DNA of 64,000 bases from a virus (Duplodnaviria > Caudoviricetes), in IMG/VR virus record IMGVR_UViG_3300047160_031539, positions 1 to 64,000 of that record, one strand, 5' to 3'. Positions 44,662-49,352 of this stretch are shown one piece after another. Below the pieces are notes generated by a model. It did no database searches. It saw only the letters and a program-made list of their open reading frames with translations, and was not told the DNA's origin. Position numbers and translations under genes: made by a program. Every line of letters begins with the position of its first letter. Position 1 is the stretch's first letter.

Positions 44662-45150
44662 TTATACCCTGAGTTTCCCAAGGCTTTCCAGCCCCCAGTC
44701 GGCCACGGGGAGGCCTCCCGCGCGGACCTCGGCGAGGAACCGCTTGGCGGCGTCCAGCCCGCAGACCAAACAGACGGGGACCCCGAACCGGCGGTAGAGG
44801 GCCAGTTGCTCCCGGACCTGCCAACGGGCCTTACGCGGCAGCACGTCTGGCCGTTTGATCTCCACAATCAGCAGCAGCCTCCTTTGCTTGCCGCTGCCCC
44901 CGAAGACCGCTAGGTCTACCCGGGCCGCCCCGGAGCCCTTACACCTCACCTCCCCTCGGGCCATGTACCCCATCTCCCGGAGGTGCCGGTAGACGTAAGC
45001 CTGGATCTCGAACTCGGTCGGCTTCGCCGCCCACCGCAGTTCCAGCCGGACCTCCTCTCCCGCGGCCAGTCGTGCCTTCAGTTCCCTCGTCTTCCTCGCG
45101 AACGCCATCCCGCCCCTGGGGGGCTTCCTCACACTCTTCGGGACCTTCAC
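44662..45150 (-). CDS. PD-(D/E)xK restriction-endonuclease-like nuclease
   Basis: EFE.Q..., RVDLAV...IVEIK...QL..Y; SD GAGGAGG before GTG 45150. Confidence 0.75.
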   Translation of the reverse strand: MKVPKSVRKPPRGGMAFARKTRELKARLAAGEEVRLELRWAAKPTEFEIQAYVYRHLREMGYMARGEVRCKGSGAARVDLAVFGGSGKQRRLLLIVEIKRPDVLPRKARWQVREQLALYRRFGVPVCLVCGLDAAKRFLAEVRAGGLPVADWGLESLGKLRV

Positions 45151-45410
45151 ACTTCCCTCCTCCCCCGCAATGCTTAGGGGCGCCGGTGAGGGCGCAGACT
45201 GCACCCTGGGAGGTGCAGTCGCGTGCCGCGGGTATGCCGTATGAGTCACGCTTTTTGCAGCTACTTGCGGCTTTCCTGGGGTGCCAGTGCCGGCCCGTGA
45301 TGCCCACCCCGCCTCGTCGCCGCTTTCGCCCGGCGGATCAACCTGGTCGAAAGGCTTGCCCACAACTCGCGGCGCTCGACCGCTCGGCATGTGGCGTTGG
45401 CCGGCTACTC

Positions 45411-45439
45411 TTGCCATTCAGGGGCCTATGTGCTAGAAA
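45411..45439 (+). promoter_or_regulatory. Sigma70-type promoter TTGCCA-N17-TAGAAA
   Basis: Read directly; flanked by the imperfect inverted repeat ccggctactc/gagtcgccgg. Confidence 0.55.
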
Positions 45440-45444
45440 AGAGT

Positions 45445-45514
45445 CGCCGGGTAGCAACGGCAAACCTCTTCTCTGGACAGGCCGGGAGTGCTAGCCCGGC
45501 CTGTCCTCTTTTAT
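45445..45514 (+). ncRNA. Putative ~70-nt small RNA ending in an intrinsic terminator
   Basis: Promoter, then a 12-bp hairpin GGACAGGCCGGG/CCCGGCCTGTCC (45475-45506) followed by TCTTTTAT. Confidence 0.45.
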
Positions 45515-45604
45515 ACCCCCCCCTTTTACTCGGCGGGGGACACGGCGTGGTGCTTGATGGTCAGGAAAGCCCGGCCTGTCCTCTTTTATACCCCTCCCTT
45601 TTAC
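45493..45604. CRISPR. CRISPR-like mini-array: 37-bp repeat, 38-bp self-matching spacer, 37-bp repeat
   Basis: Repeats 45493-45529 and 45568-45604 differ by 1 nt. Spacer 45530-45567 is identical to 48888-48925. Structure is certain; CRISPR origin is unproven (atypical repeat, no cas genes). Confidence 0.6.
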
Positions 45605-45625
45605 CGTCACCGGAGCTTTTGATCA

Positions 45626-45880
45626 ATGCCAGACTGTCAACTCGACACCCTGCCGGACGAGGACGACGCCCTCAAGCGATTCTTCCTGGCGGACGTGCGG
45701 GACTCAAGTCCCGCCCGCGTCGGGAAGGCCCCCCGGCAACTCGCCGGGGCCGCGATCATGCTCCTGAACGCGGCCTTCGGGCTCTCCCGGCCCACCCGGG
45801 CGGCCCTGCACGCCAGCGTGGAGGCCATCCTGTGGACCCTGGACACCGAGTATGGACTTCGGCCGCCGACCTTACCATAA
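45626..45880 (+). CDS. Hypothetical protein (84 aa) directly downstream of the mini-array
   Basis: GGAG upstream; coding-like; followed by a terminator. Confidence 0.6.
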   Translation: MPDCQLDTLPDEDDALKRFFLADVRDSSPARVGKAPRQLAGAAIMLLNAAFGLSRPTRAALHASVEAILWTLDTEYGLRPPTLP

Positions 45881-45938
45881 TGGGGCCGTTGGGAAGCCAG
45901 GACGTGTGCCGCTGGTTGCGGCACACAACTCCCTGAGT

Positions 45939-45982
45939 AACTCCCCCGGCCGGCGGGTAAGCGGTCGGGGGAGTTCTCTTTT
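45939..45982 (+). terminator. Intrinsic terminator
   Basis: AACTCCCCCGGCCG/CGGTCGGGGGAGTT stem then CTCTTTT. Confidence 0.7.
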
Positions 45983-46060
45983 GGCGGCGACCGTGGTACG
46001 ATTTTCCTGGTTGGTCTTCTGTAGTGCCCCCCGGCTCGTTGCCGGGGAAGGCTGCGCATG

Positions 46061-46102
46061 ACTCCCCCGGACGACTCCAGGCGTCCGGGGGAGTTTTCCT
46101 TT
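46061..46102 (+). terminator. Intrinsic terminator sharing arms with the previous one
   Basis: ACTCCCCCGGACG/CGTCCGGGGGAGT stem then TTTCCTTT. Confidence 0.7.
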
Positions 46103-46126
46103 CAGGTGGCGCAATTGCGCCACCTG
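46103..46126. repeat. 24-bp palindrome copy 13 (exact)
   Basis: Between a terminator and a promoter. Confidence 0.97.
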
Positions 46127-46128
46127 AC

Positions 46129-46156
46129 TTGCGTTTTCTCGCCCGAAAGGGATAAT
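46129..46156 (+). promoter_or_regulatory. Promoter TTGCGT-N16-GATAAT
   Basis: Read directly; upstream of the DHH gene. Confidence 0.5.
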
Positions 46157-46280
46157 GGCCGCCGGAAGGAACGGAAATTCCTTCCTCCTCACTCCCGACG
46201 CCCGAAACGTCGGGACCATCCTGCGGACGGCGGGTGCCGGTCTCCTTTCCCGGCACCCGCCGTTTTTCCAAGGAGTCGCC

Positions 46281-47150
46281 GTGTCCAAACCCCTCGTCCT
46301 CTTCCACGCCTCGTGCGCCGACGGCTTCTGTGCCGCCTGGATCGCCCACCGGGCCCTGGGAGACTGGGCCGACTACGTGGCCGTTAACTACGGCCAGGAG
46401 CCGCCCGACGTGACCGGCAGGCCCGTCTACATCCTCGATTTCAGCTACAAGCGAGACGTTCTGGACGGGATGCTGCAAAAAGCTCAAAGCATCGTCCTGC
46501 TCGACCACCACAAGACCGCCGAGGCCGAACTGCGGCCTTTCGTGCTGGCCGGCGAGGATAGGCCGCGAAACCTGACCGTCTTCTTCGACCTGTCCAAGTC
46601 CGGGGGCCGCCTGGCCTGGGAGTACTTCTTCCCCGGCAAGCCGGCCCCGTGGCTGGTGGACTACACCGAGGACCGCGACCTGTGGCGGTGGGCACTGCCC
46701 GACTCCAGGGCCATCAGTGCCTACATCGCCTCCCACCCGTTTGAGTTCTGGCGGTGGGACGTGTGGGGGGCGTGCCCGATCGGGGACGCACCCTGGCGTG
46801 GCTGGATTCTGGAGGGGGAGGCCATCCTCCGCTACCAAGAGAAGGTCGTGAGCGAGCAGGCCAAGACCGCCGCCGAGGTCGAGATCGGCGGCTACAAGGT
46901 TCTGGCCGCCAACGCCGCCGAGGTCGAGATCGGCGGCTACAAGGTTCTGGCCGTCAACGCCACCCTGCTCACCAGTGAGATCGCCGGGAAGCTGGCCGAG
47001 GGCAGGCCGTTCGGGGCGACCTTCTTCGTCCGCAAGGACGGCAAGAAGGTCTGGTCGTTGCGGTCCCGGGAGGGCGGCATCGACGTGTCGGAAGTGGCCA
47101 AGGCCCTGGGCGGCGGCGGCCACCGGGACGCCGCCGGCTTTGTGGAGTAA
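46281..47150 (+). CDS. DHH/DHHA1 phosphoesterase (NrnB-like)
   Basis: FHASCADG, YILDFS, LDHH, EDRDLW, WSLRS, GGGGHRDAAGF; SD AAGGAG. Confidence 0.9.
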   Translation: MSKPLVLFHASCADGFCAAWIAHRALGDWADYVAVNYGQEPPDVTGRPVYILDFSYKRDVLDGMLQKAQSIVLLDHHKTAEAELRPFVLAGEDRPRNLTVFFDLSKSGGRLAWEYFFPGKPAPWLVDYTEDRDLWRWALPDSRAISAYIASHPFEFWRWDVWGACPIGDAPWRGWILEGEAILRYQEKVVSEQAKTAAEVEIGGYKVLAANAAEVEIGGYKVLAVNATLLTSEIAGKLAEGRPFGATFFVRKDGKKVWSLRSREGGIDVSEVAKALGGGGHRDAAGFVE

Positions 47151-47154
47151 CCTC

Positions 47155-47409
47155 GTGGACACGGTCACGTTCCGCTACAAAAACCACCGCGGCGAGGAGG
47201 CCGTCCGGCGGGTGCGGCCGATCCGGGTCTGGTTCGGCTCGACGGCCTTCCACCCCGGGCCGGGCTGGCTCCTGGAGGCCTGGGACCTCGACCGGCAGGC
47301 CACCCGGGACTTCGCCATGTCCAACATGCTCAGCGGGTGGGAGCGAATCCTCCCTCAGTGCCCGGCCAAGGAACTGGATGAGGCCACCGGGCAGCAGGCC
47401 GTGGCGTAG
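47155..47409 (+). CDS. Stand-alone WYL-domain protein
   Basis: VTFRYKNHRGE...RRVRP..WFG......WLLEAWDLDRQATRDF. Confidence 0.8.
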   Translation: MDTVTFRYKNHRGEEAVRRVRPIRVWFGSTAFHPGPGWLLEAWDLDRQATRDFAMSNMLSGWERILPQCPAKELDEATGQQAVA

Positions 47410-47678
47410 AGGGGCAGGCCCTGCCAGGAGCCGACCAGGCGGCAGTCGTAGACGCCCTGGGAGACCAGGGGCAGCGAGTTGGCCTCGAAGACGTAGGCCT
47501 GCTCCCGGTCCCTGAGTGGCGGGGTCCCCGGGCACTGTTCGACCTGGCAGGGGTAGTAGGTGACGGGGAAGACGACGGAGCCGGGCCCCGTCACCCGGAC
47601 CAGCTGGGACAGTGCCGGGTAGAGGGGGTGTTGGTTAAGCCCCAGGAAGGGCGGGGCCAGGTTGTCGGACTGGTCCAT
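47355..47678 (-). CDS. Tail-associated protein consisting only of the shared N-terminal module
   Basis: PPFLG...YP.L..LVRVTG...LRDRE.AYVFE.N...Y..RLVG...GLPLYA..CC; 3' end overlaps the WYL gene convergently. Confidence 0.7.
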   Translation of the reverse strand: MDQSDNLAPPFLGLNQHPLYPALSQLVRVTGPGSVVFPVTYYPCQVEQCPGTPPLRDREQAYVFEANSLPLVSQGVYDCRLVGSWQGLPLYATACCPVASSSSLAGH

Positions 47679-47682
47679 CGGC

Positions 47683-48738
47683 TCACCCCGGCCACGAGAC
47701 GATAACCCGGCCGTCGGCCCCGTTGGCACCGAACGGGATGCCCACGACGCCACTGCCGCCCCCGCCGCCGCCGGGGGCTACCCCGTTGACCCCGAAGCCG
47801 TTGCTGCCGCCGCCGGCACCGCCGGCACCCCCCGCGTCGGGCCCCGGGCCGCCGGCGCCGGCCGTGCCGCCACCGGACGGGCCCGTGGTGCCGTTGCCGC
47901 CGGGGCCGCCGGGGCCCCCCGCACCGGCGGCACCTCCTCCGCCACCCCCGGCAGCCGTCGCCCCTGGCCCGACAGTGCCGCCCGTGCCACCGCTGTTCTT
48001 GAGTGTGCCAATGCTTGCGGACGCTTGCCCGCCCTGGCCGCCGTTGTGGCCGCCGCCTGTCCCGCCCTTGGCCAGCACGGTGAGGTTGCTCACAAACCAC
48101 GAGTCCTGGCCGAGGGCCCCGAAAGGCCGCCCGCCGCTCCCGCCGCAGCCCACGTAGCCCGAAACGGCAACGCCCGGGGTTACGACGATTGCACCGAGGG
48201 AGGCGTAGGCTCCGCCGCCGCCGCCGCCGCCGTTCCCGGACGCACCGAGCGACGTGGTTCCCTGGGCCCCGCCGCCGCCGGCCCCCGTACAGCGGGCCTT
48301 CACCAAGGTAACGCCGGCCGGGGGGATGAAGGAAAAATTGCCGCAGACGGTGAAGGTCTGGCTGGTGAGGGTGGCCGAGGAGGCGGCCGCGGACGAGGCG
48401 ACCGCCGAAGAGGTCGGGGAAAACGACACGGAGGACGGGACGGCCTTCCGGCAGCAGGCGACGGCGTAGAGGGGCAGGCCGCCGAAGCTGCCCACCAGGC
48501 GGCCGTCGTAGATCGCCCCACCCAGGGGCTGGCTGTTGGGCTCGAAGACGTAGGCCGGCTCGCGGTCGCGGACGGCCAGGTTGCCGGTGTACTGCTGGGT
48601 CATGCAGGGGTAGATCGGGAAGGGCTGGCCCAGGAGGGCCGGCCCGGTGACCCGGAGCAGTTGGGGCAGTTCGGGGTAGAGGGGGTGCTCGTTCTGGCCG
48701 AGGAAGGGCGACACCGTGTTGGTGCTGACCTCAGCCAC
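47683..48738 (-). CDS. Glycine-rich tail-fibre protein with the shared N-terminal module
   Basis: FIPPAGVTLVKARCTGAGGGG...GADGRVIVSW glycine-rich domain. Confidence 0.8.
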   Translation of the reverse strand: MAEVSTNTVSPFLGQNEHPLYPELPQLLRVTGPALLGQPFPIYPCMTQQYTGNLAVRDREPAYVFEPNSQPLGGAIYDGRLVGSFGGLPLYAVACCRKAVPSSVSFSPTSSAVASSAAASSATLTSQTFTVCGNFSFIPPAGVTLVKARCTGAGGGGAQGTTSLGASGNGGGGGGGAYASLGAIVVTPGVAVSGYVGCGGSGGRPFGALGQDSWFVSNLTVLAKGGTGGGHNGGQGGQASASIGTLKNSGGTGGTVGPGATAAGGGGGGAAGAGGPGGPGGNGTTGPSGGGTAGAGGPGPDAGGAGGAGGGSNGFGVNGVAPGGGGGGSGVVGIPFGANGADGRVIVSWPG

Positions 48739-48928
48739 GGGCGATTTCTCTCATGTCGGTATCGGACTGACGCTGGGCCAGTAAGAGCAGGCAGGTCGGG
48801 CAGGTAACGTTCTCGTCGTTGATACAGCACTCGCCGTCCGTCACCGACTTGCCGCAGACGGCCTTCCGTGGGGCCGGCACGGACCACTCGGCGGGGGACA
48901 CGGCGTGGTGCTTGATGGTCAGGAACAA
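48731..48928 (-). CDS. Small Zn-binding protein, paralog 3; target of the mini-array spacer
   Basis: HH...CGK...VTCPTC...D...IARG; nucleotides 4-41 match the spacer. Confidence 0.7.
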   Translation of the reverse strand: MFLTIKHHAVSPAEWSVPAPRKAVCGKSVTDGECCINDENVTCPTCLLLLAQRQSDTDMREIARG

Positions 48929-48931
48929 GGG

Positions 48932-49144
48932 TCACCCCTTCGCGATGGCCTCCAGGTCCCGGACAAGTAAAGCCCGCCTGCAGGCCGGACAGGTGGCGTC
49001 CTCGGGGGCTGTCGTCAGCCGAACGGGCCCCACCCACTTGCCACAGACCGCGGGCAACGTCCCGTCCCCCGAGCCCATTAAACAGGGTTGGTAAACGTGG
49101 ACCCAGAGCCAGTCGGCCGGGGGCGCAACCGGGTCGTAGTTCAC
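48932..49144 (-). CDS. Small Zn-binding protein, paralog 2
   Basis: H...CGK...ATCPAC...RDL.AIAKG. Confidence 0.7.
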   Translation of the reverse strand: MNYDPVAPPADWLWVHVYQPCLMGSGDGTLPAVCGKWVGPVRLTTAPEDATCPACRRALLVRDLEAIAKG

Positions 49145-49148
49145 GATC

Positions 49149-49352
49149 TCACCCCTTCGCGACCTCGGCCAGGTCCCGCCTGTCCAGGAAGGCCAGGCAG
49201 TCCGGGCAGGTGCAGTCGTCCCGTTCACTTGCCAGGTCCCAGCCGCGGACCTGCTTGCCACACAGGGCGACGATTGGGGTTCCCATAGTCTGCGGTCGCT
49301 CCACGGGCCGGCCCAGGTGGCGGACCCGGGAACGTGTGGTGTCGTCGGGCAC
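49149..49352 (-). CDS. Small Zn-binding protein, paralog 1
   Basis: H...CGK...CTCPDC...RDL.EVAKG. Confidence 0.7.
   Translation of the reverse strand: MPDDTTRSRVRHLGRPVERPQTMGTPIVALCGKQVRGWDLASERDDCTCPDCLAFLDRRDLAEVAKG

Follow-up and report, generated by a model that had tools for sequence, protein, structure and literature searches.

Must a repeat-spacer-repeat unit in a phage genome be a CRISPR element, or can a different kind of regulatory RNA, or a mere rearrangement, take the same shape? The question is raised by an uncultured soil phage (Caudoviricetes; IMG/VR virus record IMGVR_UViG_3300047160_031539; 73,632 bp, 68% G+C, completeness estimate 86%), in which two 37-bp direct repeats enclose a 38-bp spacer identical to the beginning of one of the phage's own genes. 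The stretch analyzed here, referred to as the window, comprises bases 1-64000 of this record. An earlier note, drawn up from the letters of the window, had taken the unit for a guide or antisense RNA system that silences one phage gene, either through a host effector or directly. Of these options, direct antisense action free of any effector fits the evidence best, whereas the part involving CRISPR or a host effector found no support. Our preferred reading, held tentatively and at somewhat less than an even chance, is that the unit forms an antisense or attenuator RNA, independent of CRISPR-associated (Cas) proteins, in the leader of a plus-strand gene cassette.

Anatomy of the unit and its source gene

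The three parts of the unit lie on the plus strand at 45493-45529 (R1, 37 bp), 45530-45567 (S, 38 bp) and 45568-45604 (R2, 37 bp), as first reported, and together measure 112 bp. R1 and R2 differ at a single base, a C to T change at repeat position 28 of R2 that falls inside a run of eight C residues (C8), and both boundaries of the unit are unambiguous because the flanking bases differ. R1 runs from the end of the loop of a hairpin (T1) through its 3′ arm and U tract into a C8/T4 tail, whereas R2 ends 6 nt before the GGAG and 21 nt before the ATG of an 84-aa gene. At up to three mismatches, neither the window, for which shuffles predict 0, nor the whole record contains a further copy of the repeat (R). 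The unit is situated in a non-coding leader of 517 bp (45109-45625), the largest non-coding gap of the genome, which holds T1, S and a second hairpin (T2) and separates a minus-strand gene (44662-45108) from the plus-strand cassette. This placement follows from the coding signal of the open reading frame (ORF) 44662-45417, which extends only to about 45108; its upstream part is of low complexity, the public gene call is 148 aa long, and the gene is probably a 148-aa one starting at ATG 45108. Codon-position G+C profiles assigned nearly all genes of the phage to the minus strand, the sole exception being the cassette at 45626-47409.

Together with the preceding AC, S is identical at 40 of 40 positions to 48886-48925, that is, to nt 4-43 of the minus-strand gene 48731-48928. 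The match of 38/38 to nt 4-41 of this gene noted earlier was thus re-found, and the exact match is 40 bp rather than 38 because the last AC of R1 is also common to the source. On the plus strand, S is antisense to codons 2-14 of the source mRNA, which upholds the antisense relation to its first codons claimed at the outset. With local tandem repeats and a 24-bp palindrome family set aside, no other dispersed exact repeat of the window is as long as this match. It is also the only above-chance match between the non-coding DNA of the cassette and the rest of the genome, all other segments matching over at most 16 nt, and S therefore appears as a single specific match.

The source gene (48731-48928, minus strand) encodes a Zn-ribbon-like protein of 65 aa and comes third among three tandem paralogues, with glycine-rich tail-fibre-like genes downstream of it. 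It starts at TTG 48928, 6 nt after AAGGGG, and the gene call of the source database (P0131) gives an identical 65-aa product; the source and putative target segment (48886-48925, minus strand) follows directly after this TTG start codon. The other two paralogues occupy 49149-49352 and 48932-49144, each of the three is preceded by AAGGGGTGA, and their Zn-ribbon-like products of 65-70 aa have the pattern CGK...TCPxC...AKG. The peptide AVSPAEW encoded by S has a counterpart, VAPPADW, in the second paralogue. Since the paralogues share this motif, the gene would be the original and the leader segment the copy. A profile search with the Zn-ribbon retrieved the three paralogues and distant small Zn-ribbon modules without annotation; in the distant relatives found elsewhere, the module occurs two to four times per protein.

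The repeats themselves are built from a terminator-like element. T1 (45475-45514, plus strand) is a perfect 12-bp hairpin in which 45475-45486 pair with 45495-45506 around an 8-nt loop (-26.9 kcal/mol), followed by TCTTTTAT; 10 of its 12 bp are GC pairs, and a terminator scan reported it for the plus strand. Of R1, the first 14 nt contribute to this hairpin, and R corresponds to the 3′ arm and U tract of T1. The 12-nt element at 45475-45486 that had been described as an anti-repeat is therefore real, but scan and folds identify it as the other arm of the T1 terminator rather than as a CRISPR anti-repeat. Before R2 the upstream arm of the T1 type is missing, and S provides a substitute: in T2 (45536-45591, plus strand), GGGGACA.CGG of S pairs with CCG..TGTCCTC of R2 in an imperfect hairpin (-22.9 kcal/mol), again followed by TCTTTTAT. 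Among 3000 random 38-mers of the phage, only 1.9% left all 9 nt before the U tract paired in this way, and 0.6% did so at equal or better energy. T1 and T2 both fit the description of intrinsic (Rho-independent) terminators, a GC-rich hairpin followed by a U tract, and a terminating action is predicted for them. R comprises a pyrimidine tract with a C8 run and a T tract, has no internal palindrome or hairpin and, judged by its letters, has the composition of a terminator tail.

Two further observations concern the minus strand. At 45444-45463, just downstream of T1 in the minus sense, there is a weak hairpin of terminator type with a U tract. Read in that direction, the order is repeat, spacer, repeat paired to its complement, and terminator, which superficially resembles a CRISPR RNA (crRNA) fused to a tail like that of a trans-activating crRNA.

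Several other structural explanations were considered and rejected: a gene remnant (S has no start codon, and no ORF signal crosses the unit), a simple tandem duplication (S occurs only once, between the copies of R), and the template/variable pair of a diversity-generating retroelement (the copies lack adenine-specific changes and the match is to the gene's 5′ end; no search aimed at a reverse transcriptase was made). An attachment (att) site was likewise rejected, with no integrase or resolvase in the record and, more specifically, no tyrosine or serine recombinase.

Comparison with CRISPR arrays

The dimensions of the unit invite a reading in which R mimics the CRISPR repeat of the host, the unit being a phage mini-array, perhaps a solitary repeat with a self-captured spacer. 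Loaded into a host effector, its crRNA would either repress a gene of the phage itself, with no cleavage, or keep related phages out. The unit has the makeup of a mini-array, two direct repeats of about 23-50 bp around a unique spacer of similar length; lengths of 37/38/37 are typical of several type I, III and V arrays, and the exact duplication of a repeat length is the signature of spacer integration. We nevertheless consider a Cas-dependent guide unlikely. The repeats of viral mini-arrays are identical to those of the host (PMC11656645), and R was looked for in IMG/VR (2.9 M viral contigs), 185,579 species genomes, 241 M metagenome records (Joint Genome Institute contigs), and plasmid and phage records. 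Exact 19-24-nt sub-words of R had 0 matches in the viral contigs and 0 in the species genomes, in scans that would miss repeats with several mismatches, and the metagenome records gave one match, a 20-mer shared by chance with the inside of a secretion-ATPase-like gene from an AT-rich organism. BLAST of the 141-nt unit against plasmids returned no match, and BLAST of a 301-nt stretch over the unit against phage records returned nothing related. In Rfam, no family exceeded its threshold in the window, and no CRISPR-DR family matched R even at E ≤ 10. Apart from that chance match, the repeat is thus absent from all these collections, and the CRISPR interpretation drawn from geometry is left unsupported beyond the 37/38/37 lengths. 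A diverged repeat of an unsampled host is compatible with these null searches, the lengths being the only positive evidence for CRISPR. The case cautions that CRISPR-like repeat-spacer geometry without similarity of the repeat to any array does not identify a CRISPR element.

The build of the repeat speaks against a guide as well, with its C8 run, its U tract, its want of an internal hairpin and its identity with half of a terminator, and so does the pairing of S with R2, for which a guide has no reason. If the effector cleaved, a perfect self-target should kill. In favor of a guide, the protospacer in minus orientation has a 5′ TTG flank and begins exactly there (the flank in plus orientation is CAC). 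The TTG that had been put forward as a 5′ motif is indeed present, but it is the source gene's own start codon and lies on the strand opposite to that of the antisense logic. Because the protospacer-adjacent motif (PAM) argument and the antisense argument need opposite strands, the two are not additive, which also counts against the guide.

The genomic setting can be read in its favor, since the unit heads a cassette with a WYL protein of CRISPR-associated type and a DHH phosphoesterase that could degrade nucleotide signals. The reported absence of a cas operon holds for the window and for the remaining 9.6 kb, which contain virion genes only: Cas1 is absent from the 73.6-kb record, and no other cas gene was seen in the window or in those 9.6 kb.

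Such a guide would have precedents in phage mini-arrays, repeat decoys and crRNA-like regulators of phages, all of them established (PMC11656645, PMC10651486, bioRxiv 10.1101/2024.10.29.618823). Virus-borne mini-CRISPR arrays (Medvedeva et al. 2019, PMC6858448; PMC11656645) likewise have a single, similarly long spacer between two direct repeats of CRISPR-like length and occur in viruses that lack cas genes. In contrast to our unit, with its unmatched, half-terminator repeat and a spacer matching the carrier, they have host-identical repeats and spacers against related viruses. The only match of S is the carrier's own gene (40/40), and none to a related virus or foreign element was found. RNA anti-CRISPRs (Racrs) or solitary repeat units (PMC10651486) and Cracr (bioRxiv 10.1101/2024.10.29.618823) share with our unit the form of a small non-coding element heading an accessory or counter-defence-like cassette, and could in principle engage Cas proteins without cleavage. 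However, they are similar to host repeats and have short spacers that partially match promoters of host cas or toxin genes, whereas here a full-length, perfect spacer matches a phage gene. R has neither similarity to a CRISPR repeat in the collections searched nor the internal hairpin of a Racr or solitary repeat unit. The unit also differs from CreA and crRNA-like regulators, in that its match extends without a mismatch over 38-40 nt and falls on a coding start rather than a promoter, and in having no cas locus.

Antisense action and origin of the unit

According to the antisense reading that we prefer, a 38-40-nt copy of the translation start region of the Zn-ribbon gene would have been inserted into the 5′ leader of the cassette, between two terminator 3′ halves. 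Rightward transcription of the leader, which we infer, would yield an RNA whose S segment is perfectly complementary to positions +4 to +43 of the Zn-ribbon mRNA. The resulting duplex could mask the downstream half of the ribosome-binding site and form a substrate for RNase III, blocking initiation or triggering cleavage, and the Zn-ribbon gene, probably together with the tail-fibre-like genes behind it, would be turned down. The same segment might act in cis. Only 6 nt separate R2 from the 84-aa gene's ribosome-binding site, so that the mRNA of this gene would have to start upstream and cross the unit. Pairing of S with R2 would then form T2, a presumed termination site, just before the gene, and pairing of S with its target mRNA would open T2 and let transcription enter the cassette, coupling two expression states. 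If this is correct, the phage has made itself a trans-acting regulator by placing a 40-nt copy of the target in another transcription unit's leader and putting a duplicated terminator to new use. This would be a simple and datable way for a new regulatory RNA to arise, and late virion genes might thereby be tied to an accessory cassette of DHH phosphoesterase and WYL protein.

The orientation and position of the match support this reading. Read on the strand of the cassette behind it, S is antisense to its source; it begins exactly after the start codon and offers 40 nt of perfect complementarity to a translation start region (+4 to +43), as would be expected of a trans-acting antisense RNA. 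To gauge chance, random 38-mers of the phage genome were compared with its 76 called genes. Such a 38-mer ended exactly at +1 or +4 of a gene with P = 0.2%, ended within 3 nt of +4 with P = 0.7%, and had at least 15 nt inside the -20..+20 region of a start with P = 5%. Each value is halved when antisense orientation is also required (0.025 for the start region; 0.001-0.004 for an end at or within 3 nt of codon 2). These results and those for the T2 hairpin argue that the unit was kept, or was selected among many events, for the action of its RNA.

A number of points weigh against this interpretation. The position and hairpin statistics were computed after inspecting the locus and have to be discounted for that reason. 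A sigma-70 consensus scan of the plus strand over 44800-46200 gave no promoter upstream of S, although this consensus may not be that of the host; the plus-strand promoter proposed at 45411 is not among its calls, and T1 lies between 45411 and S. If termination at T1 were efficient, little RNA would reach S. The overall fold of the region is not unusual (z = -1.9), and most of S is base-paired in the predicted structure. The phage has no relatives in the searched collections, IMG/VR giving none for the flanking proteins (251/148 aa, 65 aa, 431 aa and 949 aa), and neither conservation nor covariation supports the reading as a result. None of the listed runs that contain the phage is an RNA run. 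Moreover, an antisense RNA needs no exact start at codon 2, which a PAM-adjacent guide would need, and antisense action leaves unexplained the exact 37-bp duplication around a 38-bp insert, which is what Cas1-Cas2 integration leaves.

Another possibility, which we judge somewhat unlikely, is that the unit is the functionless scar of a single rearrangement tolerated in the largest non-coding gap. One route would be the off-target integration of a phage prespacer by host Cas1-Cas2 beside the terminator hairpin, duplicating 37 bp ('neo-CRISPR'); the other would be a two-step template switch during replication, with 40 nt taken from a site 3.3 kb distant. The unit occurs in one genome only, for which no relatives were found, and nothing shows its conservation. 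Repeats that differ by one base and a spacer that is still perfect mark the event as recent, one junction has a 2-nt microhomology (AC), and the left boundary of R falls within the loop of a perfect inverted repeat. In length, the 38-bp insert and 37-bp duplication correspond to an off-target Cas1-Cas2 product. Nonetheless, of random copies about 2.5% would be antisense to a translation start and about 0.1-0.4% would have an end exactly at codon 2, and only about 2% of random 38-mers rebuild the hairpin with R2. The second junction is without microhomology, and a template switch has no reason to generate CRISPR-like lengths. To our knowledge, off-target Cas1-Cas2 integration into a phage genome has not been reported, which also counts against a scar. 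In E. coli, as described in the papers that cite Nivala et al. 2018 (PMC6546382, PMC6698737, PMC7054753), Cas1-Cas2 can integrate off-target and make arrays de novo. Like our unit, the arrays described there (Nivala, Shipman and Church 2018) combine an insert of spacer length with a sequence, other than a CRISPR repeat, that is duplicated exactly over a repeat length; they differ, so far as these accounts go, in having arisen on E. coli chromosomes with an over-produced type I-E system and 28-bp duplications, whereas our site belongs to a phage genome and the protospacer has what looks like a non-random position.

Origin and present function are separate matters, in that the unit could have arisen by Cas1-Cas2-like integration or by a replication template switch whatever it does now, and a unit integrated in the CRISPR manner could later have been put to use as a plain antisense RNA. 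A combined scenario, in which host Cas1-Cas2 inserted a phage-derived spacer at a non-CRISPR site or at a phage repeat decoy, and the product was kept for the silencing of a phage gene by its RNA, whether or not a host effector takes part, appears to us distinctly unlikely, slightly more so than the Cas-dependent guide. If it were true, it would show how viral mini-arrays arise, as a natural example of the birth of an array on a virus, and would reveal a phage that uses a self-directed guide to control its own gene.

That the unit is an artefact of assembly or library preparation and not part of the phage DNA is highly improbable. The record is a single metagenome assembly, and small parts of the stretch occur in 21 soil runs; in the 4 examined, the phage is represented only by low-depth unitigs of about 150 nt, none of which bridges R1-S-R2 or shows a variant form. 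On the other hand, both junctions (R1-S and S-R2) must occur in reads for an assembler to build the unit, its 112 bp are shorter than one 151-nt read, and R1 and R2 differ at one base, all of which makes an artefact unlikely. In addition, one independent unitig spans 45578-45728, from the right part of R2 into the 84-aa gene, with zero differences.

The preferred antisense reading has parallels among known RNAs. The phage antisense RNAs lambda OOP, P22 sar and P1/P7 c4 are likewise short phage RNAs that pair with the translation start region of a phage gene, and c4 acts away from its own coding position. Unlike our unit, in which the complementarity is perfect over 40 nt, 3.3 kb away and copied from the target, they lie opposite or next to their targets or have short, imperfect complementarity. 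NrsZ, a Cas-independent small RNA of Pseudomonas, consists of three stem-loop modules with equal-sized spacers, whose CRISPR-like look its authors remarked upon while describing their strain as one without a CRISPR-Cas system (PMC4253122). Repeated modules of stem-loop and U tail, equal-sized spacers and the tail CUCUUUUAUACC are common to NrsZ and our unit. However, in NrsZ the loops act and the spacers are discarded, whereas our unit lacks the loop motif and has its complementarity in the spacer. T1 and S/R2 can be aligned to the Rfam model RF02695 with 20.7-23.5 bits only, far short of the gathering score (76.9), and we take the resemblance as one of build and not of membership. In action, the unit resembles the phage antisense RNAs, and in build the modular small RNAs of the NrsZ type; it has the dimensions of a mini-array and failed the test of repeat identity. 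What would be new here is a trans-encoded, perfectly complementary antisense segment derived from a copy of a gene start and set between duplicated terminator halves.

The plus-strand cassette and its surroundings

The cassette opens with the orphan 84-aa gene (45626-45880, plus strand), whose product was modeled with low confidence as a three-helix bundle (mean predicted local distance difference test score [pLDDT] of 60, too weak for a structure search). Close relatives of this protein and of the 148-aa protein were absent among 5.8 billion proteins. The second gene encodes a DHH/DHHA1 phosphoesterase (46281-47150, plus strand; phrog_4771, E 8e-86), whose start is probably GTG 46281 after AGGAG within an ORF open from 46155. 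It has thousands of homologues, the best of which (62% identity) lies in an unrelated context. The last gene (47155-47409, plus strand; frame checked) encodes a stand-alone WYL protein of about 84 aa that matches the Pfam WYL domain (E 2.5e-6) and the CAS-associated WYL model of PADLOC (E 4.9e-9). As a module, the cassette may serve counter-defence by degrading or binding nucleotide signals.

Between the 84-aa gene and the DHH gene, the 400-nt gap at 45881-46280 contains at least 8 strong hairpins (z = -8.6 versus shuffles), 4 of which are followed by U tracts and 2 of which (45939-45982 and 46060-46102) are paralogous. Rfam gave only weak, sub-threshold matches over this gap, which could be a terminator bank or a small-RNA cluster.

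At its other end, the cassette meets a convergent gene (47355-47753, minus strand), which the 3′ end of the WYL gene overlaps by about 55 nt. This gene and the adjacent minus-strand gene 47683-48738 have in common a C-terminal segment of about 270 nt with 72-79% nucleotide identity (47382-47664 versus 48442-48721). The larger of the two, 47683-48738, contains a glycine-rich domain (PF21722) and has a weak match to a minor tail protein, and together with the common segment this makes the pair look like duplicated receptor-binding tips. On the opposite flank, the 148-aa protein was unrecognised by Pfam, PHROGs and NCBIfam; its C-terminal part shows a D...E-x-K pattern (VDLAVF...LIVEIKR) reminiscent of PD-(D/E)xK nucleases.

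As to the host, an amine-oxidase look-alike found in a feature search points weakly to Planctomycetota, and a genome scan yielded no related locus. Finally, a 24-bp perfect palindrome with the core CAGGTGGCGCAATTGCGCCACCTG is found at 46102-46127 and at about 20 other sites of the record, at gene junctions throughout the genome; copies beyond the window lie at about 67256, 70113 and 71865, and the copy in the cassette is followed by a U tract.

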